This document shows positions 16,941 to 29,206 of a stretch of 64,000 bases of DNA, in pieces. The position numbers were made by a program, and so were the translations under genes. Every line of letters begins with the position of its first letter. The stretch's first letter is position 1. Origin of the DNA: Candidatus Tayloriibacteriota bacterium (GTDB lineage Bacteria > Patescibacteriota > Minisyncoccia > Phycocordibacterales > PALSA-1337); NCBI GenBank assembly GCA_903857825.1, contig CAIOGI010000009.1, positions 7,203-71,202 on the forward strand, written 5' to 3'. Under the pieces are notes generated by a model. It was given only the letters and a program-made list of their open reading frames with translations. It searched no databases and was not told where the DNA came from.

Positions 16941-18323
16941 ATGAAAAATATCTGGCTTCTCACCGAAGAACGACCTAAAAACGATGTCATTCTCACTATT
17001 TTGAATAAGGTCGGGACAGACAATAATTTTAAAGTTCAATCTGAGGGTGCGAAGGTTATACCTATTATGAAAGATGGTTGTTTTACTTTTTTATACAAAG
17101 TTGAAGATGTTAAATGCGAAGGATTTGAAAATATATTTATTAAAATAGCCAGTGGTAATTCTAGCTTCGTCGATTTTTTGATATTTCTCCAAGAAGCAGA
17201 GCCTGATCAAAGTTCAAAACCTCTCTATGCAATAGAAGAAACGAAAACCGATGATTCAGAATCTCGTAACACAGGAGTCTACCAACGCTGTAGTAAGTTT
17301 GTATATGTAGAATTCTATTATCCGGGCATTAGGAAAATAATGCTCTACAGTTTGCAGATCAAGCAAAAAATAAAACCAACAGTAACCAATATTTTCGGCA
17401 CACGAATGCTACGAACGATAGGCGTTGAAATTCTTGGCAAAACATTTGATGAGGAAGTCATGAGACCATTCACGAGCCTCGATGAGCTAGTTCAAGCAAA
17501 GAGTGCTATGAGAATGCCCCCGACCGGTAATGTCCCTATTCAAATCGAGGTGCACCCTGACAAAATCACAGTATCAGGAAGGCTTTTTAAAGCTGGTGGG
17601 ATAGGCCATGACCCTAATATCGGCGCACTCACCATCATAGCTCTCTGTATTAGACGTTGGGAAAAAGAAAAGCCAATCATCATAACCAAACATGGTTTAT
17701 CTCAAGAACATCTTGGAAGAGGAAACAAATTTATTCAGATCGCCAACAGGCTCAATATCGGGCTTGATGGTTTAAATGTCCAAATTGCAACTCAACATGA
17801 GCTTTATTGGCATTATGAAATGTCCCAAGAAAAGCTAGCCACTATATTTCTCCACGTCCTATTACTCAATTACACGAAAGCAGAAGTCATCTATGCCAAC
17901 CATGGAGGCACGGAGAGAGGATACTTTATGCACAAAGTTCAGGGACCGATCGTGATTGAGAAATATCAAGAAGGAAAACGAGCCGCATATAAGCTTGGCG
18001 ACAAATCTCTGATTATTCACTTACCAGACATGATCATTTTTGATACTGCTAGAAATCAGATCATCAATGTCGAGGGTAAAAAGTATAGTACACGAGCAGC
18101 TGGTATCGAGGAGTTGGCAAACTATTCCTACATTGAAGAAAAAGTGATTCTACCTTCACATAGTCCTTCGGCTTTTATCAGGACCGTTGTTGTTTTTGGT
18201 AGCAAAGAAACTGAACTTAAGGAAAAAGAGATCGGATTTATGCTAAATGAAAATGGAGATCTTGTGTTGGGTAAATATGCTCCTGAAATATTTAAAGAAG
18301 TAGTATCAAAAGCTACAGCCTAG
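16941..18323 (+). CDS. candidate type II restriction endonuclease (context only)
   Basis: 460-aa ORF convergent with the adjacent adenine MTase and overlapping it tail-to-tail by 4 nt. No conserved motif; this is the usual R-M layout. Confidence 0.3.
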   Translation: MKNIWLLTEERPKNDVILTILNKVGTDNNFKVQSEGAKVIPIMKDGCFTFLYKVEDVKCEGFENIFIKIASGNSSFVDFLIFLQEAEPDQSSKPLYAIEETKTDDSESRNTGVYQRCSKFVYVEFYYPGIRKIMLYSLQIKQKIKPTVTNIFGTRMLRTIGVEILGKTFDEEVMRPFTSLDELVQAKSAMRMPPTGNVPIQIEVHPDKITVSGRLFKAGGIGHDPNIGALTIIALCIRRWEKEKPIIITKHGLSQEHLGRGNKFIQIANRLNIGLDGLNVQIATQHELYWHYEMSQEKLATIFLHVLLLNYTKAEVIYANHGGTERGYFMHKVQGPIVIEKYQEGKRAAYKLGDKSLIIHLPDMIIFDTARNQIINVEGKKYSTRAAGIEELANYSYIEEKVILPSHSPSAFIRTVVVFGSKETELKEKEIGFMLNENGDLVLGKYAPEIFKEVVSKATA

Positions 18324-19441
18324 GCCTCTTGTAACGCCAAGTCTTTTTTCTTTAGCTTCCCCACCCTTTTATTTCCAACCTGAGAATTCTCTAGAATATA
18401 TAATTGCTCCTGAATAGTTTTCATATGCTTCGAGTCTCCGTTGCTATTGCTTTTAAACCTGAGGTAATCAATATTCTGCAATGTTACTCGTCCATACTTC
18501 TCTAGAGTTGCAATGATATCTTTCTCAGGCATTGCACCTTCAGAATTGTAGCTCAAAATCAGATAGCGGTATTTAGCTGTTTTTGCCACCTTATCTAAGG
18601 CAAGAAGTGCTGTATTTTTATTACAAAAATCAGATTTTTGATTCTTGTAATCTCTCATTCCTGTTACACCCTTAATCGCAGGACTGTCGTATCGTGCGAT
18701 TGTTTCCAAGAGATGATAGTTCGGTGCATATTGCCGATGGTTATAAGGAGGATCCATATAGAGTATGTCTACATCTAAATCTTCCACTAGATCCATACTG
18801 TTCCTGTTGAACACAGTATGCTCTTTGTCGCCTGAATAAAAACTCATTTCTTTAATTTGAAGCGGCTTTAACGCTCTAGGGTCATACTCCTTAAGAAAAG
18901 CTGCATAGACACCTGAAATATTTGCATAGAAAGGTACACTTTCAATAAGAGAAGCGAGAAGTACAAAATACTCATTTTCATTTATTAATTTTTCTTTCCA
19001 CCATTCTTCTATCAAAAGTCTTATAGCATCAATCTTCTTACCATTCTCGGGTAGAAAGAATTTTCTTTTATGTTCCTGATCCTTAGTTCCTTCATCAGTA
19101 TAATTTTTGTAAATAAAACCTTTAACACCTTTCAATTCGTTCAAATAACTTCTTACAGAATCAAAAGGAGAAGCAAAAAGAATGTTCGATGAGACATCAA
19201 GTGTTTTCAGCAGTTTTTTAAACTCAGGTTCACCATTATTTTCTATATAAGCTTTTTGGAGTACATAAGAAAAATAGAGTAAATCAGAAGACACAATCTC
19301 AAATCCTTTTTCCTTAAAGAATCTTCCAACATTTGAAGTACCAGAAAAGAAATCGCAAAAAACCCCATCTTTTACGCCAGTCGAGGTTACGGCTTGGTAG
19401 ATTCGATCCAGCAATTTTTCTTTGTTGCCAATAAATCTCAT
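18320..19441 (-). CDS. N6-adenine DNA methyltransferase, D12/alpha class
   Basis: Motif X RFIGNKEKLL, motif I FFSGTSNVG, motif IV YMDPPY. Confidence 0.75.
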   Translation of the reverse strand: MRFIGNKEKLLDRIYQAVTSTGVKDGVFCDFFSGTSNVGRFFKEKGFEIVSSDLLYFSYVLQKAYIENNGEPEFKKLLKTLDVSSNILFASPFDSVRSYLNELKGVKGFIYKNYTDEGTKDQEHKRKFFLPENGKKIDAIRLLIEEWWKEKLINENEYFVLLASLIESVPFYANISGVYAAFLKEYDPRALKPLQIKEMSFYSGDKEHTVFNRNSMDLVEDLDVDILYMDPPYNHRQYAPNYHLLETIARYDSPAIKGVTGMRDYKNQKSDFCNKNTALLALDKVAKTAKYRYLILSYNSEGAMPEKDIIATLEKYGRVTLQNIDYLRFKSNSNGDSKHMKTIQEQLYILENSQVGNKRVGKLKKKDLALQEA

Positions 19442-19442
19442 A

Positions 19443-21008
19443 TTAATAGTTTGTGATTAACAGCTCTGCCACCTTGCCGCGCTGATCTTTTTTACTATTC
19501 AAAGTTCGACCAGAGAAAACTTGCTGAATTTTATAACCCTTATAAAGATCCCGAATGAATTCACAATCTGAATTGGAGAGCATCACTTTACAGCCCTTCT
19601 TATCCAAATGATCAATTTTTTCCTTCAGTCTTATTTGATCCTCTTTATGGAATTTCTCTTTAGTATAACGAGTGAAATCAGAATAAACTGATATAGGATA
19701 GTAAGGAGGATCGAGATAAACAAAATCATTAGTGCCAGCATCATTTACCGCCATCTCAAAATCTACTTCTTTTATTGCCACATTTTTTAGAACCGCACTA
19801 GCACTTCTGATTGTATGTTCATCACATATAAGCCGATTGAGAGAGCTGCCTATTGGTACATTAAACTGCCCTTTTTGATTGACCCTATAGATACCATTAA
19901 AACAGGTCTGATTTAGATAAATCATTCTTGCAGCAATTTCAGCTGAATTCAATTTTTGGAAAATATCAATTTCCCGATCTAAATTTCTTACTAAAGGATA
20001 TAATTCTTTTGAGTGTTTTGATCGTAACTCCTTAAGCAGTCTGATCACTTCTTCTGGATTGTCTCGTATACCCTCATACGCCCTGATCAATTCAGTATTG
20101 TTGTCGGCCAGAATCGCCTTTTGAGGTTGGAGATGGAAAAACATTGCCCCTCCACCGAGAAAAGGTTCGTAGTAAGAATTGAATTTTTTAGGTAGAAACT
20201 GTTCGTATTGAGAAATCATCCCTCTCTTGCCTCCTACCCATTGAAGAAAAGGTGTTGCCTTCTCATCTGGTGAAGAATTTGTCTCTCTTTTTACATTTGC
20301 AGTCAGAGGCATGCGTTTCAATAATTTCGTCAATTCGCTTTCATGCGTGTGTACTGATTCAAGCTCTCTAATAATTTTTACAACTACGCCTCTGATCTCA
20401 ACTTCAGTTCTAAAAAAAGGAAGTAGGTTTTGATTTGCCGGTTGCAAACGGAATCTCCCCTTTTCCTTGTAAATCTTTTTTAAGGTTGCCTGATTATCAT
20501 CAATAATTGCGACTACAGTTTGACCATCTTCTGCACTTTGCTGTTCTCGTATAACGACAATATCACCATCAAATATTCCATCATCGATCATGCTGCTTCC
20601 AGCCACCTTTAAAGCGTAGTGCTTTCCTGCATTGGGTATTTCACCCTGAGACAGTACCAACATCTCACCGTGCCTTTCTACTGCTTCAATAGGCAATCCG
20701 GCAGCAATAGTACCTAGAATTGGGACATGAACACTGCCAAGAGCCTTTTTAGGGGCAACAGCTCGAGGTTGATTGATCTCTTTATAAATCAAGCCAGCTT
20801 CCTCAAGTTTTTTTACATGATGATGAGCTGTAGATACCGAAGAAAGTTTTAAATGTCCTTTTATTTCTTCAAGAGAAGGGGCGAACCCATGCTTTTTACT
20901 ATAGGTAGTAAGAAAATCTAATGTCTGTTTTTGTCTTTTAGTTATCATATTACACTTTCGATTTATTTTCGATATCATAATTATAGCGCCACCTAAATTA
21001 AGAAGCAA
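19443..21008 (-). CDS. LexA-like autocleavable repressor (wHTH + S24 peptidase) fused to a Dam-type GATC adenine methyltransferase
   Basis: N-terminal half: MITKRQKQTLDFL..., cleavage site IAAGLP, GSSM (Ser nucleophile), ATLKK (Lys). C-terminal half: FLQWVGGK, FLGGGAMFF, FVYLDPPY, collinear with E. coli Dam. The likely true start is the ATG at 20948 (MITKRQ). Confidence 0.75.
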   Translation of the reverse strand: MLLNLGGAIIMISKINRKCNMITKRQKQTLDFLTTYSKKHGFAPSLEEIKGHLKLSSVSTAHHHVKKLEEAGLIYKEINQPRAVAPKKALGSVHVPILGTIAAGLPIEAVERHGEMLVLSQGEIPNAGKHYALKVAGSSMIDDGIFDGDIVVIREQQSAEDGQTVVAIIDDNQATLKKIYKEKGRFRLQPANQNLLPFFRTEVEIRGVVVKIIRELESVHTHESELTKLLKRMPLTANVKRETNSSPDEKATPFLQWVGGKRGMISQYEQFLPKKFNSYYEPFLGGGAMFFHLQPQKAILADNNTELIRAYEGIRDNPEEVIRLLKELRSKHSKELYPLVRNLDREIDIFQKLNSAEIAARMIYLNQTCFNGIYRVNQKGQFNVPIGSSLNRLICDEHTIRSASAVLKNVAIKEVDFEMAVNDAGTNDFVYLDPPYYPISVYSDFTRYTKEKFHKEDQIRLKEKIDHLDKKGCKVMLSNSDCEFIRDLYKGYKIQQVFSGRTLNSKKDQRGKVAELLITNY

Positions 21009-21130
21009 GTGTGGTGATCAACACCTCAATATGTCAAAGGAAGAAAAAATTAATATTAGAATGATGCAAAAAAACAAAAACGAACAGAGGAAGCTGTAGA
21101 GATACGCAAACGAGGATTTGGTCAGCAATT

Positions 21131-21307
21131 ATTTCCCTGCGAACGGTTCAGATGTTTCTCCTTTATTGGCAAAGTAGAATGAGAAGGCCATAGAAGCCAG
21201 AATCATGAAATCCTTGGGATCTATCTTGCTATAAAACATGCCGATAATTGTTGCCACTGCCATCAGAATAAAGACTATTTTCGATGCTGATGAATATATA
21301 CTTTTCA
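21131..21307 (-). CDS. small membrane protein (59 aa), possible lysis accessory
   Basis: Hand-translated: MKSIYSSASKIVFILMAVATIIGMFYSKIDPKDFMILASMAFSFYFANKGETSEPFAGK. Lies just downstream of the endolysin. Confidence 0.25.
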
Positions 21308-21338
21308 TAAATTTATTTTAATTGATTAATAATTCGAC

Positions 21339-22394
21339 CTAGATCGCAAATTGCGCATTGAGTGCGGCTCTCGTCTTCGGACCGATATGATTTGGCGAGG
21401 GTGCAATCTTATGTGCCTGCTGATACCTGGCATTCGCTGACGCCGTCTTCGGACCGAAGATACCGAGCTCGTCGGCTGGGACGGGTGCGAGAAATCCAAG
21501 TATCATGTACGCTATCTGAGCAAGCTTTACATCTTCATTATTGTCACCGAGAGTAAGGTTCTTCTGCCAAGTGCAATGGAATGCTGATGGGGAGGGCAAA
21601 GCCTTCAGGAAGTCCTGCACATTTGGAGGAATTTCTGCAACCGCCCATTGCTCTATAATATAAGGAGACCATGCTTTCGGATCGTATTTTGCCCTTCCGT
21701 AATTAGCCCAGGACGCACTCCATTCGTTCTGAAGATCGTTATAGATATCGTCTTCCCAACCGAAAGGAGTCATTTGATGTCCTGAAACTATAGTTTTTGG
21801 TATTCGAAGTGGATCTATATCTTTATCTGCCCACGATGGAGTCCATAATTCGTTACCAATTTCAAAGAGTGCGGAAACTGCACCATAAAGATATATGGCT
21901 TCTCGTGTTCTTTGAAAATCGAGAGGAACAGAAACGTAGCCGGGAATTTTATACTTAGCTGCTTCATCAAAAACTTCCTTAGTAAGTTTGTTGTCGTTTC
22001 GATATTCAAGAACCGACAGCGAGGTATCGTTTGGAAGAGTTGCGGTTGTGGCACAGCCATAGAGAACTGCGAGTTTAAATACGAGACGGGGATAAGTTCC
22101 GCCCATTGCTCGATCCTGAAGATCGAACCGTTTTGCAAGTATATCGAGAAAGCGAGGAGAGAAATCGATCATCTTCCCTGTTTTCTTGAGCCAGTAGAGT
22201 TTAAGAGTATCTACGGCACTATGCGATACGCACGCGGGCACGAGTGCTTGCATCATGGGAGATGCGAGTGCTGTTTTGTGTGTAGGAGGAAGTTGTATTC
22301 GTGTTGGAAGTGCTTCGGCTACTGCGGAAGCAACATATCCGTCTCGATAGTCGGGAGGTGAAATAATAGCGCCTGTTGAAAATTGCTCATTCAT
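21339..22394 (-). CDS. endolysin: papain-like cysteine peptidase domain + C-terminal peptidoglycan-binding domain
   Basis: The N-terminus has Q...C (QALVPACVSHSAV), like C1 peptidases. The C-terminus has a PG_binding_1 pattern (LAQIAYMILGF...GIFGPKTASANARYQ). A holin sits immediately upstream. Confidence 0.55.
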   Translation of the reverse strand: MNEQFSTGAIISPPDYRDGYVASAVAEALPTRIQLPPTHKTALASPMMQALVPACVSHSAVDTLKLYWLKKTGKMIDFSPRFLDILAKRFDLQDRAMGGTYPRLVFKLAVLYGCATTATLPNDTSLSVLEYRNDNKLTKEVFDEAAKYKIPGYVSVPLDFQRTREAIYLYGAVSALFEIGNELWTPSWADKDIDPLRIPKTIVSGHQMTPFGWEDDIYNDLQNEWSASWANYGRAKYDPKAWSPYIIEQWAVAEIPPNVQDFLKALPSPSAFHCTWQKNLTLGDNNEDVKLAQIAYMILGFLAPVPADELGIFGPKTASANARYQQAHKIAPSPNHIGPKTRAALNAQFAI

Positions 22395-22398
22395 AAAT

Positions 22399-22599
22399 TT
22401 ATTTGATCATTAAGTTAATAATTCCGGTGATTAATCCGGCAACCGATGCTGTAGCCACAATCCAGAAAAACTTCATAAGCCATTGCTGGTTTGTCTTTAC
22501 GACTGCCATATCCTCTTCAATATGGCTCAAGTGGTTGTCCTTGATTTCTTTGATATCCAACTCAATTTTTTCTATTCTTTTTTCCATATTGTTAGACAT
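22399..22599 (-). CDS. holin-like small membrane protein
   Basis: 66 aa, charged N-terminus and a single C-terminal TM segment. Directly precedes the endolysin. Confidence 0.45.
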   Translation of the reverse strand: MSNNMEKRIEKIELDIKEIKDNHLSHIEEDMAVVKTNQQWLMKFFWIVATASVAGLITGIINLMIK

Positions 22600-23356
22600 A
22601 TGTTATGGCTTTGATTATGAATAGAACGACCGCATACGGTGGCATGTTGTTATGCGCCCCGTTGCTTCCCGCCGTGCCGCTATTCTGCGTGGCATCCTGT
22701 CCACCGCTCGATCTCATGGCGTTCGTAGTACTTCCGGATCCTGACGACGACATGGCTATCGGATGCGAATGCGAAGCCAATTCCGCGGCGGTAAGCTGGT
22801 GCGCCTTTTCTCCTACATAGGCGTTCGGAACGTTGATGTTGTCGAAGTTCGTATCCGATATTTTCTGTCCGTAGGGCGTATAACCACGGAGATCTGGAAG
22901 ATTGAATGTGCTTGAACCGTCCCCTTTGCCCCAGTTCGAGTAATAGACCGTGTGAATGCCGGACTGTGATCCGGAAGTATTTACCGCCGCCCCGCCTCGG
23001 GTCGTCGATACTCTGAAATCATTGGTGCCCAGTCCTGCAGCAATCACGAAGTAATCGGTATTCACTGCAAGTCCCGTCGGCAATGCTCCTGTCGTTTTGA
23101 AGTGAACTTTATCTCCCGTCATAAATCCGTGATTTGAAAATGAGATGACTGTAGGAGAGGCGATAGAGATAGTGCACTGCCCTGATGGACAAAGTGCAGC
23201 GAAGAGTCCGGGATATGCACTTCGCAATACCGCCGATCCGTCACAAGGCAGGAAATCAGCCGGCACCGTCTTGCCCGCAAACGGAATTATGCTTCCTTCG
23301 GGAAGTATCCGATTCATGTCGACTGCAAGTGCTTGTTGTCCTTGTTGAATGGCCAT
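22592..23356 (-). CDS. tail fibre protein with phage tail-collar domain
   Basis: LPCDGSAV..YPGLFAAL...GDGSSTFNLPDLRG...HQLTAAELASHSH...HNNMPPY (Phage_collar/MdpB-like). Confidence 0.8.
   Translation of the reverse strand: MAIQQGQQALAVDMNRILPEGSIIPFAGKTVPADFLPCDGSAVLRSAYPGLFAALCPSGQCTISIASPTVISFSNHGFMTGDKVHFKTTGALPTGLAVNTDYFVIAAGLGTNDFRVSTTRGGAAVNTSGSQSGIHTVYYSNWGKGDGSSTFNLPDLRGYTPYGQKISDTNFDNINVPNAYVGEKAHQLTAAELASHSHPIAMSSSGSGSTTNAMRSSGGQDATQNSGTAGSNGAHNNMPPYAVVLFIIKAITYV
23324..23356 (-). repeat. conserved 5' segment of the tail-fibre genes (MAIQQGQQALA), copy 1
   Basis: ggccattcaacaaggacaacaagc recurs at 24520-24552 and 25370-25402. Confidence 0.6.
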
Positions 23357-23361
23357 GTTTT

Positions 23362-23517
23362 ACTTTTCTTTAAGCTGATGCTCATCACAAAGAGTCAGAT
23401 GTTTAAGATATAGCTCGTTCAAGTCGACCGTTGATTCTGGAGAAAAAGTGATAGAGCCACAGATTTTTCTGCATACAACACATTTCAAATCGTATGTGAT
23501 TTCTTTGTCTTTCATGA
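23362..23517 (-). CDS. small Cys-rich protein (51 aa), possible fibre assembly factor
   Basis: MKDKEITYDLKCVVCRKICGSITFSPESTVDLNELYLKHLTLCDEHQLKEK. Sits between fibre genes. Confidence 0.2.
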
Positions 23518-23520
23518 TGA

Positions 23521-24552
23521 TTATATAAATTCTGTATTAGGAGCTATTAATGAAAAACCATTGCCTCCAGCGCCTCCGTTATAATATCCACCATTTGCAC
23601 CCGAGTTGAATACGCTTCCACCACCTGCGCCTCCAAAGGCTGCACCACCTGAGCTCATTGAAGCAGTACCACCTGTTCCGCCGGCACAGAGGAATGTTCC
23701 AGAATTGGCGACCAAGGTGTTGTAAAGAGCGAGGCCGAAGCCACCGCCACCCCCACCTCCTCCGGCTACAGTAGTATTACCACCCCCTCCTGAATTTCCG
23801 TTGCTTCCTGCAGATCCTGCAACAGAGATGCCACCTGCGGTAGTGAAATTCCAAGCACCACCGCATTCGATTAGAAGTGCACCTCCACCAGTACCACCTG
23901 CCGCAGTATTGCCGTTAAATGATCCTGCATTACCAGTACTGACTCCACCAGCACCACCGCCAGCTCCTGCAAATGTCAGGAAGTTAAATTTCGATAAAAT
24001 AAATGAAAAGATATTTGCTGATATTCCGAAAACTGTCGGTATAGCACCACCGACCGCCGGATTATGTACCCAACCACCTTCACCTGCATTGGTTTGCAAA
24101 GATGATATTTGTGCCGAGTGTCCGCTATTACCAGTTATATAGGACAACGTCCCAATACTTCCTGCGGCACTTGCACCTCCCCCGCCACCAGTATTTCTGC
24201 AATCAATCATCGGAGCCGATGATGAAGTAAGTGTTACATCACCCTGAGATTTCAAAATGACAAATGTCCCGTTTGCATTCGGATTTGTGAATGCTAGTTT
24301 ACCTGTCCCTGTAATCGAGATGGAAGTGTAATTTTTCACGACTACCGAGGCGCCTCCCAGATTGATCGATGTCGTTCCTGAGGAAATAGAGAGTGAACCA
24401 TCAGAACCATTTCCACCAAATTTAACAGTCATAAATGAATTATCAATTTTCCCGCTCGAGTTGAGTTTTGGTACTTTGCCAGCATCATTAGTACCGCCAG
24501 ATGTACTGACGAAATCCGAAGCCAGAGCTTGTTGTCCTTGTTGAATTGCCAT
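23521..24552 (-). CDS. glycine-rich tail fibre protein
   Basis: Shares the MAIQQGQQALASDFV...DNSF N-terminus with its neighbours. Long Gly/Ala/Ser/Asn-rich repeats. Confidence 0.65.
   Translation of the reverse strand: MAIQQGQQALASDFVSTSGGTNDAGKVPKLNSSGKIDNSFMTVKFGGNGSDGSLSISSGTTSINLGGASVVVKNYTSISITGTGKLAFTNPNANGTFVILKSQGDVTLTSSSAPMIDCRNTGGGGGASAAGSIGTLSYITGNSGHSAQISSLQTNAGEGGWVHNPAVGGAIPTVFGISANIFSFILSKFNFLTFAGAGGGAGGVSTGNAGSFNGNTAAGGTGGGALLIECGGAWNFTTAGGISVAGSAGSNGNSGGGGNTTVAGGGGGGGGFGLALYNTLVANSGTFLCAGGTGGTASMSSGGAAFGGAGGGSVFNSGANGGYYNGGAGGNGFSLIAPNTEFI
24520..24552 (-). repeat. conserved 5' segment of the tail-fibre genes, copy 2
   Basis: MAIQQGQQALASDFV. Confidence 0.6.
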
Positions 24553-24553
24553 G

Positions 24554-25402
24554 TTATGTTCTGATTAAGAAATTCACCACCTTGTATGGAGGCATGTTGT
24601 TATGTGCCGCGTTCGAGCCGACCGTCGCCATGCTCATCGGCGTATTTCGAGTGGCCGCGTTGTTTGTCAGAGTCGTGCTGTTTGCGACATACGGAATCGA
24701 CGCTCCGCCCGAACCGTCCTGCCAGGTGATCGGCGTATGGGAGTGCGCCGCCAATTCCGCCACGCTCAATTGATGATTCTTTTCTCCGACGTATGTATTC
24801 GGAGTATCGAGCGTGTCGAAATTGGCATCACTTACGTCATAGCCGAATACCGTCCTGCCCTTGAGATTCGGAAGATTGAACGTGGTCGATCCGTCTCCGG
24901 CACCGGAGTTGAAGACCTGCCACGCATGAATACCAGACTGTGAGCCGGAAGTATTCACAGCGGGACCGCCTCTCGTTGCGGAAACTCGGAATTCATTGGC
25001 GTTCAACCCTGCCGAAATTACATAGTAGTCCGTATTTATAAGGAGTCCTGTCGGCAAAGCGCCTGTGGTTGTGAATCGGATCTTGTCTCCTGCTACAAGG
25101 ACATGGCCGCTTGAAGCGAAGACTGCTGGTGAGGCGATGCTTACCGTAAATCCGGCCGAAGGACACAGGACAGCGAAAAGCGCCGCATATGCGATTCTCG
25201 AAACTGCTTGTCCGTTGCAGAGAAGCCAACCTGTCGGAAATGTTCGACTCATGCTCGGCACGATCATTCCCGTAAGTCCGAGGAAGCTGTTATCAAGGAG
25301 TCCATTTGCATCAGTCTTGACTCCTTTTCCGGCATCAACAGCACCCGCCGTTGATGCGACGAAATCTGAAGCCACTGCTTGTTGTCCTTGTTGTATCGAC
25401 AT
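24554..25402 (-). CDS. tail fibre protein with phage tail-collar domain (paralog of 22592-23356)
   Basis: Collar-domain motifs LLCNGQAV...GDGSTTFNLPNLKG...HQLSVAELAAHSH...HNNMPPY. Central region about 60% identical to ORF 22592-23356. Confidence 0.8.
   Translation of the reverse strand: MSIQQGQQAVASDFVASTAGAVDAGKGVKTDANGLLDNSFLGLTGMIVPSMSRTFPTGWLLCNGQAVSRIAYAALFAVLCPSAGFTVSIASPAVFASSGHVLVAGDKIRFTTTGALPTGLLINTDYYVISAGLNANEFRVSATRGGPAVNTSGSQSGIHAWQVFNSGAGDGSTTFNLPNLKGRTVFGYDVSDANFDTLDTPNTYVGEKNHQLSVAELAAHSHTPITWQDGSGGASIPYVANSTTLTNNAATRNTPMSMATVGSNAAHNNMPPYKVVNFLIRT
25370..25402 (-). repeat. conserved 5' segment of the tail-fibre genes, copy 3
   Basis: MSIQQGQQAVASDFV. Confidence 0.6.
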
Positions 25403-25403
25403 A

Positions 25404-25889
25404 TCAGTTTATTGTTACCTGCATTTCTATGGTCGTGTCTTCCCCACTACCCTTCGTATATGGAACGCCAAACAAGGCATGATTGAATATCTTCCCTGTA
25501 CCAACGCCGGAGCTTCCGTCCACAAATGATCCAAATTCAGTATATGTGCCGTTTGGAAGTACGTTGTCGGCAAAGAAGAACTGCATCGTTGCTATAGCAC
25601 CCGATACTGAGCCAGAGCCGACCGACGCTCTGGCTTGAGGAGTCTGGAGTACTGTATCCGAAGCGTCAGGAGGATTGGTTCCAGTACCCATATCGGCGTG
25701 GGTGAGATTGAGGGAATATGTGTTAATACCAGCCAGTCTCTCCAATATGAGAGTCTTTCCCGTATTAACACCGAGCATGATTAGATTCGAGTACCAATCG
25801 CTTCGTCGCACGATTTCATTCGTACCAGCTTTCTTGGTTAAAATTCGGAATCTTCCCTTCGGTTGTATTTTTTCTTTTTGATTATTCAT
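25404..25889 (-). CDS. phage tail/baseplate-associated hypothetical protein
   Basis: Position between the distal tail protein and the fibres. Confidence 0.3.
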   Translation of the reverse strand: MNNQKEKIQPKGRFRILTKKAGTNEIVRRSDWYSNLIMLGVNTGKTLILERLAGINTYSLNLTHADMGTGTNPPDASDTVLQTPQARASVGSGSVSGAIATMQFFFADNVLPNGTYTEFGSFVDGSSGVGTGKIFNHALFGVPYTKGSGEDTTIEMQVTIN

Positions 25890-25898
25890 ATATTTTTA

Positions 25899-27332
25899 TT
25901 ATCCCCACGTTCCCAATCCCCAATAGAGAGCATTGGGATCCGGTCCCCATTTGTACGGGCCGACTGCTCTTTGTGCTGTAACCGAATCGCCCATAACTGC
26001 GGACTCAGCGAAGATCTCAAGCCTTTGAAGAACTTCGTTGGAGGCGATTGTGATATTTTTCTTATTGCCAGTAAGAAGTTCGACCATAATATCGGTAAAC
26101 GAAACTTGACCTGAAGCAATGAGATAGACCGTGTATTCCATAGACACGCTATCTCTCACCTTTCCAGTGATCTTGTTTATTTTGAATGTCTTATCAACAT
26201 TCCTGATTACGCTGTGCACTCTAATCCTCTGCCCAACCTTGAGGCCGGTCTGGATTGTTTTGAACGAGGCTTCGTAGACACTCTCGGAGTATTTCTTAAG
26301 TTCGGTTTGCGCCCTGGTTTGAGCTTCGCTTATTGATGTAATACTCTTATCAATGACCGCTGCTTGATACTCTCCGTATGTCGATATCGATATCTGATCT
26401 CGAACTTGGGCTATAATAGGAATATACGCATCGCCAAAAACTTTGACCGTATGTCCGGTAATTGGAGCGGTGGTATATTTGATAAATTTCTCGTTGAAGT
26501 TATAGAGCACATCGACCTGGGCAGGATTGGATTGTTGATCTGTACCCACGGTATTTACAGTCGTATTGTCCTTGACAGTAATATTGTCGTACTTGTACGA
26601 GAGCGGAAATACTTTCTGTACGCCATCGCCGACGAATATGTCCTGGGCGTTTGCTTCGGCAATTGTTTTTTTATATTCTCCCCCTCGGACGAATACTGAA
26701 TTCTTTATCTGAGTAATCGTATTATTGACCTCGAGCGAATCCCATTCGTATTTATCTCCGGCATCCGAAAGCTCGAAGGGTGCCGAAAGATTTTCGCTGT
26801 CGAAGAAATGAATATCTTTATCAGCATCGACATACCAATCCCAGCCGATCTGATCTGCCAGCTGTGTGAGACATCTCGTGACTTGCTCGTAGTTAAACTT
26901 AATGGAACCAATCGACGGTGTAGACTGTGCCACGTTGTTTGTGGTGAACCCTGATGTGTATATAGAGACGAGCTCAAGGACAATAGACCGTGCCGTCACA
27001 TTTGTATAGCTTCGGACAACCACTTTGCGGTCGAGATATTGCGAATAATCTTTACAGCGTATATCGTAGGCGATCAATAGCCCTCCTTTAATGATCTGAT
27101 TCCTCTCAGTGATGACCCCGCCGAATATTTTAGTTCCATTTTCTTCAAGCTCTACATCATCGTTTACCGATGGAATCGTTTTTGCTGGCGTCTTCATTAT
27201 TTGAAATTCCAGACGATCAACTTCTTTGGAAAGAACTTCAGTCACTACCAAGGAATCCCATTTCACATGGTCTGTTCGATCTATGTTGTTTATTCTTAGT
27301 ATCAATGCCATGTGATTATGCTCGGATTCCAC
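25899..27332 (-). CDS. phage distal tail protein (Dit/Sipho_tail-like), candidate
   Basis: 477 aa, immediately downstream of the tape measure gene. Confidence 0.4.
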   Translation of the reverse strand: MESEHNHMALILRINNIDRTDHVKWDSLVVTEVLSKEVDRLEFQIMKTPAKTIPSVNDDVELEENGTKIFGGVITERNQIIKGGLLIAYDIRCKDYSQYLDRKVVVRSYTNVTARSIVLELVSIYTSGFTTNNVAQSTPSIGSIKFNYEQVTRCLTQLADQIGWDWYVDADKDIHFFDSENLSAPFELSDAGDKYEWDSLEVNNTITQIKNSVFVRGGEYKKTIAEANAQDIFVGDGVQKVFPLSYKYDNITVKDNTTVNTVGTDQQSNPAQVDVLYNFNEKFIKYTTAPITGHTVKVFGDAYIPIIAQVRDQISISTYGEYQAAVIDKSITSISEAQTRAQTELKKYSESVYEASFKTIQTGLKVGQRIRVHSVIRNVDKTFKINKITGKVRDSVSMEYTVYLIASGQVSFTDIMVELLTGNKKNITIASNEVLQRLEIFAESAVMGDSVTAQRAVGPYKWGPDPNALYWGLGTWG

Positions 27333-28671
27333 CGAGGTTTATCTGATTTTTAATAATGCGTGCCAATTCGTTTCCGAATTCTTCAGCCACTTCTGTAGAT
27401 GTGTAAAAGTCCCCGCTCAGATTTATCGTTATTCCTCCAGCTCCACCCATTCTACTCAATGGGATGATTGCCTCAGGACCAGCTTCGCCAACAAGACCGA
27501 GAGTAGGGCCGGTGACAATACCGCCGTCTGCAAACTTCGACACAACCGTCTTTACGGCGTTCACAGCCCCTTTTATTGGAGCACTTACGGCTGATACCAC
27601 GCTGTTATATGCACTCTGAATCGAGGCTATGGCACTCTTGATCTTCTCTATGCCCGCGTTGAATAGATCAACAATTCCATTCCATATCGAGGTAAAGAAA
27701 TCTTTGATACCATTCCATGCTTCGACAAATACACCCTTGATGTTTTCCCATTGTGTTTTCCAGAGCGTATAGAAAAAGATAATCACCGCACCTATGGCGG
27801 CGATCGCAGCAATGATGAGACCTAAGGGACCTAGAAGTGTGAGAGCAGCTGCGGCAGCAACAATAAGTCCCGCAACAAAGAGTGCGGTCAGAAGACTTCC
27901 AACAACAATCAGAAGAGTACGGTTGTCCTCAAGAAATTTATTTATTCCACCTTGTGCTCCAATCCAGTTTTGTATTCCTTTTGTAACCATTTCAATTGCC
28001 GGTGCAAAAAGACTTCCCAACGCTTCAGCACCTTCACCTCCAAGCTGTCGCGTAATATCGAGCTGACCTTTCAGAGTTTCTGAATATGCAGCAGCCTGAC
28101 CATGAACAGTTTTCATGATGGCAGCAAGGATAGTTTCCTTAGATGCGTGATCATCGACTTCGATTCCGAATTGTTTCAGAAGTCGTGCATTACCTTGAAA
28201 GGCAAGAATCAAAGCCTGGGTCGACTCCTCGAGTCCAATACCCTTATAACGTGCCAGATCCATGGCTGCAGTAAATGCTTCAAAGGCAAAAGGGCCGTCA
28301 TTAGTTGCTTGAAGAAGTTTGGCAATCGAGACAGCCGCTTCCTCATTGTCGAAACCGAACTTATTGAGCGCCTCATCTGCAACCGCAAGTATCTGGCCTC
28401 TCAAAGCTTGCAGGTTTGGAGGAAGGGTTTTGAGAATTGCATCAAAGCGAGTCATCTGTACTTCTGCCTCAGCAAAGGCACCGATCACACTTTTCAATAT
28501 TGCCCCTGCGCCAATCGTCTGAAGCACTCCCGCCAATGCACCGACCTTGTCGCCTGCAAAACCAAACTGCCCACCAAGATCTGATAGGCTATTACTCATA
28601 CTTCGGATTGCAGTACTTGCTTCATCCCGAAGTTGAACCAATATTTGTAGTTTGCTTATTGACTCTGCCAT
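27316..28671 (-). CDS. tail tape measure protein
   Basis: Coiled-coil N-terminus, central hydrophobic segment, C-terminal NGIKDFF/NGIVDLF repeats. Follows the frameshifted chaperone pair. Confidence 0.7.
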   Translation of the reverse strand: MAESISKLQILVQLRDEASTAIRSMSNSLSDLGGQFGFAGDKVGALAGVLQTIGAGAILKSVIGAFAEAEVQMTRFDAILKTLPPNLQALRGQILAVADEALNKFGFDNEEAAVSIAKLLQATNDGPFAFEAFTAAMDLARYKGIGLEESTQALILAFQGNARLLKQFGIEVDDHASKETILAAIMKTVHGQAAAYSETLKGQLDITRQLGGEGAEALGSLFAPAIEMVTKGIQNWIGAQGGINKFLEDNRTLLIVVGSLLTALFVAGLIVAAAAALTLLGPLGLIIAAIAAIGAVIIFFYTLWKTQWENIKGVFVEAWNGIKDFFTSIWNGIVDLFNAGIEKIKSAIASIQSAYNSVVSAVSAPIKGAVNAVKTVVSKFADGGIVTGPTLGLVGEAGPEAIIPLSRMGGAGGITINLSGDFYTSTEVAEEFGNELARIIKNQINLGGIRA

Positions 28672-28883
28672 GATGATTTATTCTTTTTCTTTATCTCTGC
28701 ACTCTCCGCTTTGAGCATTTCGATAATAGTGTCAATGAAAGTTGTGGGTTGATTTTCATACTCTTGTAACGTCCACTTCATTTCTCTGCATATCATCGCC
28801 GCTACCATTTCATCAGTGAGAGAGGCTTTCAAACCTGCGAAGTACCTCTCCCACGCATACCCTACTTCGCCGACTGAAAATTT
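28656..28883 (-). CDS. -1 frameshift extension of the tail assembly chaperone (gpGT-like)
   Basis: Slippery heptamer A_AAT_TTT in the zero frame at 28877-28883 (minus strand), 6 codons before the stop. The -1 frame continues for 74 aa (SVGEVGYAWERYFAGLKASL...KKKNKSSWQSQ) and ends 15 nt inside the tape measure start. Confidence 0.5.
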   Translation of the reverse strand, partial: KFSVGEVGYAWERYFAGLKASLTDEMVAAMICREMKWTLQEYENQPTTFIDTIIEMLKAESAEIKKKNKSSWQSQ

Positions 28884-29206
28884 CCCTTCGTGACTTTATT
28901 CAACTCCGCAACCACGAAGTCATATTCCGCAGGCGTTGCTTGCTCAAGCCTGTCGGCAATGTTCTCCGAGCTACCGGCATACGAGACAATGAGCTGTTCA
29001 AAGGTTCTATTCTCGGCTTTGAGCATGATTGAAGCATCGACATCCTTCATAATACTTTCGCCTTCACTTGCGATATCATTCGGGTCGATCTTGATGCCTT
29101 CAAGGAAGGCGCTTTTAATAGCATTTCTTTCCTTGGCGTTCATGAAAGACTTGATAACGAGTTCTTTTCCGAGAGGCGTTGTGAGTTTTATTGTTTCTCT
29201 TTCCAT
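28862..29206 (-). CDS. tail assembly chaperone (gpG-like)
   Basis: 114-aa acidic protein between the major tail and tape measure genes. Ends at a slippery site. Confidence 0.55.
   Translation of the reverse strand: MERETIKLTTPLGKELVIKSFMNAKERNAIKSAFLEGIKIDPNDIASEGESIMKDVDASIMLKAENRTFEQLIVSYAGSSENIADRLEQATPAEYDFVVAELNKVTKGNFQSAK

Follow-up and report, generated by a model that had tools for sequence, protein, structure and literature searches.

How can one phage carry three adjacent genes that open with the same 11–12 residues and then lead into bodies of unrelated kinds? The question is raised by a locus in the window, the 64-kb (64,000-nt) stretch of contig CAIOGI010000009.1 analysed here, in whose coordinates all positions are given. 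Three minus-strand open reading frames (ORFs), called A, B and C, form the last structural genes of a complete siphovirus-like prophage. A preliminary description of the sequence had taken them for a modular cassette of tail-fibre genes whose products likely dock through a common N-terminus. We conclude, with a probability of about two in three, that they form a receptor-binding protein (RBP) cassette in which a common N-terminal anchor docks on one tail-tip site and the bodies behind it are exchanged at the anchor.

The ORF list places the three genes exactly within 22592–25402, the region proposed for them (Table 1), and all three translations begin with M[AS]IQQGQQA[LV]A, as had been stated. 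A degenerate 26-nt pattern, ATGNCNATHCARCARGGNCARCARGC, matched three times in the 64-kb window, each time at one of these starts, and had no match in 100 dinucleotide shuffles, which places the common 11–12 residues beyond chance. The ~33 nt of 5′ nucleotide conservation noted earlier correspond to a 35-nt repeat family (D2) with 80–91% identity among the three 5′ ends; 17 nt (CAACAAGGACAACAAGC) are identical in A, B and C, and 20 nt between B and C. A and B were alike up to residue 41 (24/41 residues identical, 59%; 94 nt at 72%) and showed no relatedness beyond it. A and C were 51% identical overall and ~60–65% identical in the centre (residues 61–215), close to the ~60% first reported.

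The described order of C-terminal parts, collar, Gly-rich, collar, also held. The Pfam Collar domain (PF07484, gathering threshold 24 bits) matched A with 52.1 bits and C with 58.2 bits, in two stretches each, the domain being split by an insertion. B, with 25% Gly, had no Collar match and no significant match to any Pfam or PHROG family. The term tail fibre fitted only in part: the genes are receptor-binding genes, but proteins of 254–343 aa without a shaft are compact RBPs and not long fibres. An additional 51-aa ORF with a CxxC motif, absent from the preliminary description, lies between B and C. Neighbouring genes of the structural operon are only 1–5 nt apart.

With A and the 161-aa protein encoded just upstream of it as queries, we collected related loci and listed the genes that follow the 161-aa gene. 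The relatives were IMG/VR and metagenome contigs together with prophages in two metagenome-assembled genomes (MAGs) labelled as candidate phyla radiation (CPR) bacteria. In the close relatives, 1–4 tandem genes occupied the slot after the 161-aa gene, and their bodies, order and number differed. All of these genes began with M-x-I-x-x-G-Q-x-A, in its fuller form M-[AST]-I-x-x-G-Q-x-A-[LVI]-A (27 paralogues, 10 loci). The modular nature of the cassette, as first proposed, was thus confirmed by a slot with a common motif and different bodies.

Naming each gene by body type and length, the window reads Collar282, Gly343, the 51-aa ORF and Collar254. Locus L001 has Collar281 and Gly373; L002 has Gly343, a small ORF, Gly345 and Gly373; L081 has Collar282, a 314-aa non-Gly type and Collar254; L086 and L094 have Gly373, Collar273 and Collar254; and L095 and L096 have Collar286, Gly373 and Gly327. 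Four RBP genes are present in L090 (Gly343, a small ORF, Gly343′, Gly373, Collar254), and four genes in L097 (a 153-aa type, Collar294, a 317-aa type, Gly363). The body types include Collar-282, Collar-254, several Gly-rich types of 327–373 aa, the 314/317-aa type and the 153-aa type, and none of the non-Collar bodies had a Pfam match. Where present, the C-type gene was always the last of the array (window, L081, L086, L090). More distant relatives, whose 161-aa protein was 49–61% identical to that of the window, carried a single RBP with a start such as MAKASKVNAGDTATAAQYNNL or MKSIKVNIGDNVLASQYNDL, alignable to the anchor as [IV]xxG[DQ]xxxA[AS][QD][YF]. Judged from this short motif, the anchor probably predates the expansion to several RBP genes. 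A degenerate-DNA scan of IMG/VR for the anchor returned only 8 stretches, mostly on contigs already among the relatives, and a profile of the anchor alone (residues 1–43), run against a collection of 5.8 billion proteins, gathered only 42 candidates and yielded 2 fragment matches, which was uninformative on body diversity.

We next located the junctions between modules by pairwise blastn of the window against its relatives, with coordinates converted to those of the window. The window and L081 were collinear at 87% identity from the 470-aa gene through the 161-aa gene, A and the first 77 nt of B, where homology ended at 24476. Unrelated bodies followed, Gly343 and the 51-aa ORF in the window versus the 314-aa type in L081, and homology returned at 23360, 4 nt ahead of the ATG of C. 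Collinearity with L002 stopped at 25326, 77 nt into A and within the anchor extension. The segment 24556–23324, which spans B and the 51-aa ORF and ends 33 nt into C, then matched L002 at 81%, from gene 1 of that locus through its small ORF to nt 33 of gene 2; from 22587 on, at the start of the holin gene, the two were 96% identical. Breakpoints therefore lay 33–77 nt inside the anchor-coding 5′ ends or just ahead of an ATG, and homology returned at the ATG of the next gene or at the holin gene. All left boundaries of the modules are thus in, or a few nt ahead of, the anchor-coding 5′ ends, and the holin gene is the right boundary of the array. It is our strongest result, and it supports an exchange of modules at the anchor-coding 5′ ends.

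Mosaicism in these prophages was strong. The holin gene and the compared part of the endolysin gene (window 21339–22599, L002 10179–11427) were 96% identical, and the tail-tip genes (window 25404–27311, L002 4896–6803) only ~77%. Between L001 and the window, the tape-measure protein was almost identical and RBP A 74% identical.

The anchor itself occurred in variants that followed the locus: QQGQQ in the window, L002, L081 and L090, T[AQ]GQT in L001, L084–L086 and L097, and [EQ]SGQ[TQ] in L095 and L096. We compared the first 12 residues (N12) and the body, defined as the remainder of the protein, within and between loci. Unrelated paralogues of one locus had an N12 identity of 0.84 and a body identity of 0.25; for orthologous bodies in different loci the values were 0.77 and 0.79. 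Because N12 identity was higher within a locus than between orthologues, the anchor evolves with the resident tail and not with the body attached to it. This is as expected for a docking element that fits a partner encoded elsewhere in the genome.

In the arrangement that we propose, each RBP would consist of a short N-terminal anchor and an interchangeable receptor-binding body. The anchor core is the motif common to A, B and C, lengthened in A and B by an extension of ~30 aa (DF..s.G..DAGK..K....G.lD.SF); as their bodies, A and C have a Collar-type head and B has a Gly-rich beta-helix. The anchor would fit each RBP, presumably as a trimer, onto a common tail-tip site, and all three proteins would be present in the virion. 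The best candidate for this site is the 161-aa protein encoded just upstream of the first RBP, with the 470-aa hub-like protein as the alternative. Recombination in or near the anchor 5′ ends could insert, delete or replace bodies, and since the anchor is the sole shared part, whole bodies could be replaced without disturbing tail assembly. The likely outcome is a phage lineage with 1–4 RBPs in varied combinations and presumably different or broader host recognition. The proposed N-terminal docking is well motivated because the anchor tracks the genome, because the adjacent 161-aa protein is predicted to have a baseplate-type fold, and because Klebsiella phage KP32, discussed below, provides an experimental precedent.

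The 161-aa gene lies directly upstream of the first RBP gene in all close relatives examined. Its product was modelled with a predicted local distance difference test (pLDDT) score of 96.6, and the best neighbours of the model in the PDB were baseplate or fibre-attachment proteins. This gene position and predicted fold make it a reasonable candidate docking platform. Twelve of its positions segregated with anchor class, a pattern inseparable from phylogeny. A tblastn search of 50,697 phage records gave no match to the 161-aa protein, and PDB sequence searches with A and the 161-aa protein (single sequence and profile) and with the 470-aa protein gave nothing useful.

We also considered, and rejected, a detached N-terminal domain of a P2-type fibre as the identity of the 161-aa protein. 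This idea had come from a match to PHROG 4176 (positions 10–151 of 309) and from a weak PF12571 match in one relative (E = 0.035). The family comprised 505 cluster representatives, and the best 150 were all short standalone proteins of about 60–300 aa without fibre fusions.

A motif conserved at the start of every gene could have a function other than docking. It could serve self-assembly, for instance as a trimerisation nucleus or fold cap, with tail attachment through another surface. In many trimeric fibres, correct register depends on an N- or C-terminal element, and residues 1–50 of the B monomer model were predicted with moderate confidence (pLDDT 73–82) as short helical and strand elements and not scored disordered. 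However, the same 12-residue nucleus would be unexpected for two unrelated folds, a Collar head and a beta-helix, and homologues of the Collar body with entirely different N-termini (P0018–P0040) indicate that this body folds without the motif. Together with the co-variation of the motif with the genome and not with the body, this makes a self-assembly role rather unlikely. Conservation could alternatively act at the nucleotide or mRNA level, as a translation-initiation or coupling signal in the form of an A-rich 5′ coding region free of structure, or as a recombination site, with the peptide incidental to it. The close gene spacing makes translational coupling likely, and codon use in the anchors is skewed: in the window, Gln is CAA in 12/12 cases and Gly is GGA in 3/3, against 49% CAA and 38% GGA in the prophage overall, and codons 6–7 are GGA CAA in 27/27 paralogues. 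This excess leaves some room for an effect on the mRNA, but it would follow without any other function if A-rich codons are preferred where genes begin. The same 27 paralogues varied synonymously at codons 2, 3 and 9–13, even inside one genome, and kept the residues, which points to selection on the peptide. Moreover, the extension common to A and B is kept more as protein (59%) than as DNA (56% over nt 37–120), and the distant relatives retain their form of the motif with different DNA. We therefore regard a purely nucleotide-level explanation as quite improbable.

Plain tandem duplication and divergence, with the N-terminus as the slowest-evolving remnant and no modular exchange, would fit the clear paralogy of A and C and the mutual relatedness of some Gly-rich types (body identity 0.31–0.50). 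It is nonetheless very improbable as an account of the whole array, since the Collar proteins have only the anchor in common with B and with the 314-aa, 317-aa and 153-aa types, and since gene order and content differ among close relatives whose flanks are 77–96% identical, with sharp breakpoints at the anchor. Alternative C-termini behind a common N-terminus also resemble the Sc/Sv organisation of the invertible fibre segments of Mu and P1, so the genes might be alternative tips of which one is expressed at a time through an invertible segment, a shufflon or a diversity-generating retroelement (DGR). We give this almost no credence: all three genes lie on the same strand, and each is a complete ORF that has a start codon to itself; the region 21000–29000 contained neither significant inverted repeats flanking them nor a pair resembling the template and variable repeats (TR/VR) of a DGR; and no invertase, recombinase or reverse transcriptase was found among the prophage proteins scanned, which did not include every ORF of the window. 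The only 3′ repeat (22612–22663 and 24562–24613, 75%) corresponds to the homologous C-termini of A and C.

A caveat to our own account concerns the shared 5′ ends, which the preliminary description had suggested as sites of recombinational swapping. The breakpoints do fall there, but this is no proof that the repeats drive recombination. Within one genome, nt 1–36 of the anchors are only 67–92% identical, with a longest identical run of 6–26 nt, and such short, imperfect repeats may be drivers of recombination or may merely mark the only viable junctions. Alternatively, breakpoints may have been scattered, with survivors only among those that kept the anchor intact. Recent gene conversion between the anchors of one genome is unsupported, synonymous differences being frequent and identical runs short.

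The bodies differ in architecture. A comprises the 41-aa long anchor, a Collar head split by an insertion of ~80 aa and a C-terminus resembling Gp10_C (PF21939, threshold 27 bits), which scored 30.7 bits over residues 181–282. In C, the short anchor (codons 1–11/12) leads straight into the Collar head domain, and the Gp10_C match, at 20.1 bits, is below threshold. Orthologues of A (P0001–P0017) have the same architecture as A; those of C are P0033 and P0025. The Collar bodies of A and C were 35–38% identical to minor tail proteins of the Microbacterium phages Gack, Eden and Franklin22, which aligned only from residue 44 on and hence without the anchor. The anchor region itself had no match by BLASTP and tblastn against phage records.

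The ~80-aa insertion in the Collar domain (window 24900–25150 in A, residues ~84–165; 22850–23100 in C) has the pattern SIASPxVF...GDK[IV]xFxTTGALPTGL..NTDY[YF]VI...FRVSxTRGGxAVNTSGSQSG. It is highly conserved in hundreds of homologues, many of which carry the JGI annotation 'microcystin-dependent protein', and has a match to PHROG 30390 and a weak one to a PHROG of baseplate wedge proteins.

In B, the 41-aa long anchor is followed by the Gly-rich body. Its model, built from 44 homologues, had a pLDDT of 88.9 and a predicted template modelling (pTM) score of 0.83. The predicted structure superposed on beta-solenoid proteins, and a Foldseek search of the model against the PDB found nothing. B is thus confidently modelled as an adhesin- or tailspike-like beta-helix (beta-solenoid). 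We detected 562 homologues in a family for which Pfam has no model, and a family definition of its own would be merited. Members of this family (including P0121–P0240) share a conserved N-terminal block, KFGGxGSDGALSISSGTTTI...KNYTSISITGTGKL, and the only significant Pfam domain among them was PF09327, in two members.

The small ORF between B and C, of the form CxxC...C..H, was conserved directly after the Gly-343 gene in L002 (7836–8001) and in L089 and L090 (9519–9683) and was absent after other module types, so it travels with the Gly-343 module. Gene calling in an independent assembly also recovered this ORF, which had no Pfam or PHROG family match. A longer CxxC ORF of 101 aa follows the Gly-rich RBP of L100. 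The 51-aa product is a candidate module-specific assembly factor or chaperone.

Several features of the cassette have counterparts in known systems. In Klebsiella phage KP32, RBP2 cannot be incorporated into the virion without its first 29 aa, and this peptide, fused to a foreign enzymatic domain, enabled incorporation of that domain; in KP32, K11 and KP34, the 'conserved peptide' of RBP2 docks on the branching domain of RBP1 (PMC13352976). As in those phages, a short N-terminal peptide (29 aa there and, here, 41 aa or a core of 12 aa) is the sole conserved part, the bodies behind it are exchangeable, and several RBPs stand side by side. In contrast to them, all RBPs here have the anchor in common, and a protein of its own, the 161-aa one, is the likely partner. 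An RBP1-type large anchor with a T4 gp10-like branching domain, as in KP32, is absent from the cassette; at most about 44 residues precede the body in its proteins, and the sole Gp10-related Pfam signal in the cassette lies in the C-terminal head of A. KP32-type phages are also podoviral, whereas the phage described here is siphovirus-like, with up to four RBPs per genome and a docking step that we infer.

Adaptor-mediated systems are closer in that a separate small protein is the likely partner. The fiber-tail adaptor of Ralstonia phage GP4 (PDB 8jou) has modest structural similarity and no sequence similarity to the 161-aa protein, and gp37-type adaptors of SP6 and K1-5 presumably play a like role. 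The baseplate hub of the archaeal siphovirus HFTV1 anchors three trimeric tail fibres (PMC12494034). There, the structurally comparable part (PDB 9h4p) is a domain within a 953-aa hub and serves one fibre type, whereas here the protein stands alone and several RBP genes come after it. Like T4 gp12 and the 'minor tail proteins' of Microbacterium and Arthrobacter phages, A and C are Collar-domain proteins, with scores well above threshold, but they have no shaft, their domain is split by the ~80-aa insertion, and an anchor is added. Invertible segments (Mu G, P1 C) and shufflons also combine a constant N-terminal part with alternative C-terminal parts; here, however, the genes are separate and complete, and variation is found between genomes rather than in a switch inside a single genome. 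Within the scope of the tests above, invertible segments and DGRs are excluded.

A conserved N-terminal anchor, exchangeable C-terminal bodies and several RBPs per phage are known already, and the conceptual gain is incremental: the locus adds one more case to an established route by which phages alter or broaden their host range. What is new is the very short universal anchor, the presence of up to four RBPs per genome, the maps of natural breakpoints, the unannotated beta-helix RBP family and the probable CPR host. To our knowledge, phages of Patescibacteria/CPR are almost uncharacterised, and we know of nothing on their host recognition. For one such phage lineage, the anchor provides a sequence-searchable marker of receptor-binding genes. 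At least seven body types are catalogued from the locus as well, among them the large Gly-rich beta-helix family, and the natural breakpoints show the positions at which one body can replace another. Should docking need no more than the 12-residue anchor, this would rank with the shortest known plug-in connectors and would offer a useful design rule for engineered RBP swaps.

The closest genome matches were prophages of two MAGs, one bearing the label Candidatus Tayloriibacteriota (L001) and the other Candidatus Saccharibacteria (L002), and one B homologue was labelled 'Patescibacteria group'. From these labels of related loci, and not from the flanks in the window, the host of the prophage is probably a CPR bacterium. 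The occurrence of related prophages in MAGs of different CPR phyla may reflect either a cross-lineage host range or a binning or labelling artefact. Protein A was found exactly in 63 blocks of public assemblies, on contigs of 20–200 kb.

A speculative extension, which we consider unlikely, is that the RBPs of a genome compete through their identical anchor for one class of docking site on the 161-aa protein, so that every particle would bear a stochastic, combinatorial set of at most four unrelated heads, as a form of bet-hedging. If true, mixed-head virions could attach to different CPR lineages, or to an epibiont and its host bacterium. The near-identical modules in the Tayloriibacteriota and Saccharibacteria MAGs are compatible with such breadth, and equally with the artefact just mentioned.

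The RBP genes belong to a region of ~45% GC that is set in sequence of ~36% GC. On the minus strand, the prophage runs from replication and methylase genes through the portal, protease and major capsid protein genes to head-tail adaptors, a tail completion protein and a 329-aa tail protein (tail tube). These are followed by the tape measure, the 470-aa and 161-aa genes, A, B, the 51-aa ORF, C, holin and endolysin (Table 1).

Table 1. Positions of the RBP cassette, its anchor segments and the neighbouring tail and lysis genes in the window
Feature	Position	Strand	Remarks
Tape measure	27316-28671	-	Tape-measure PHROG matches
470-aa tail-tip/baseplate-hub-like protein	25899-27311	-	Directly after tape measure
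161-aa conserved small tail-tip protein	25404-25889	-	Candidate docking platform (adaptor)
RBP A	24554-25402	-	282 aa, starts MSIQQGQQAVASDF...; ORF list
Anchor core of A, codons 1-12	25367-25402	-	MSIQQGQQAVAS
Anchor extension of A, codons 13-41	25280-25366	-	DFVASTAGAVDAGKGVKTDANGLLDNSFL; common to A and B, not in C
RBP B	23521-24552	-	343 aa, starts MAIQQGQQALASDF...; ORF list
Anchor of B, codons 1-41	24430-24552	-	
51-aa CxxC...C..H ORF	23360-23515	-	Between B and C
RBP C	22592-23356	-	254 aa, starts MAIQQGQQALAVDM...; ORF list
Anchor core of C, codons 1-12	23321-23356	-	
XhlA-like holin	22399-22599	-	XhlA/hemolysin PHROG 1193; right-hand cassette boundary
Endolysin-like protein	21339-22394	-	PG_binding_1 domain; lysis module after cassette

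Two of the annotated starts probably need adjustment. The 470-aa protein, which matched PHROG 4930 'baseplate hub' weakly (E = 7e-5) and had no PDB sequence match, probably starts at the ATG at 27311 and not at the GTG at 27332 that gives a 477-aa ORF; its orthologues in L001 and L002 are 470 aa long and have the equivalent Met as their start. The holin likely starts at 22587 (62 aa) rather than at 22599 (66 aa), as it does in L001, L002 and L111, and this start removes the apparent 8-nt overlap with C.

Just outside the lysis genes of the prophage lies a pair of methylase genes on the minus strand. The first, a 521-aa ORF (19443–21008), combines three parts in one protein, namely a LexA-type DNA-binding domain, an S24 peptidase domain and a D12-class (Dam) N6-adenine methyltransferase, and a second Dam-type methylase (18320–19441) follows directly downstream. 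A fusion of repressor and methylase is unusual, and the pair may be the prophage repressor or a moron.

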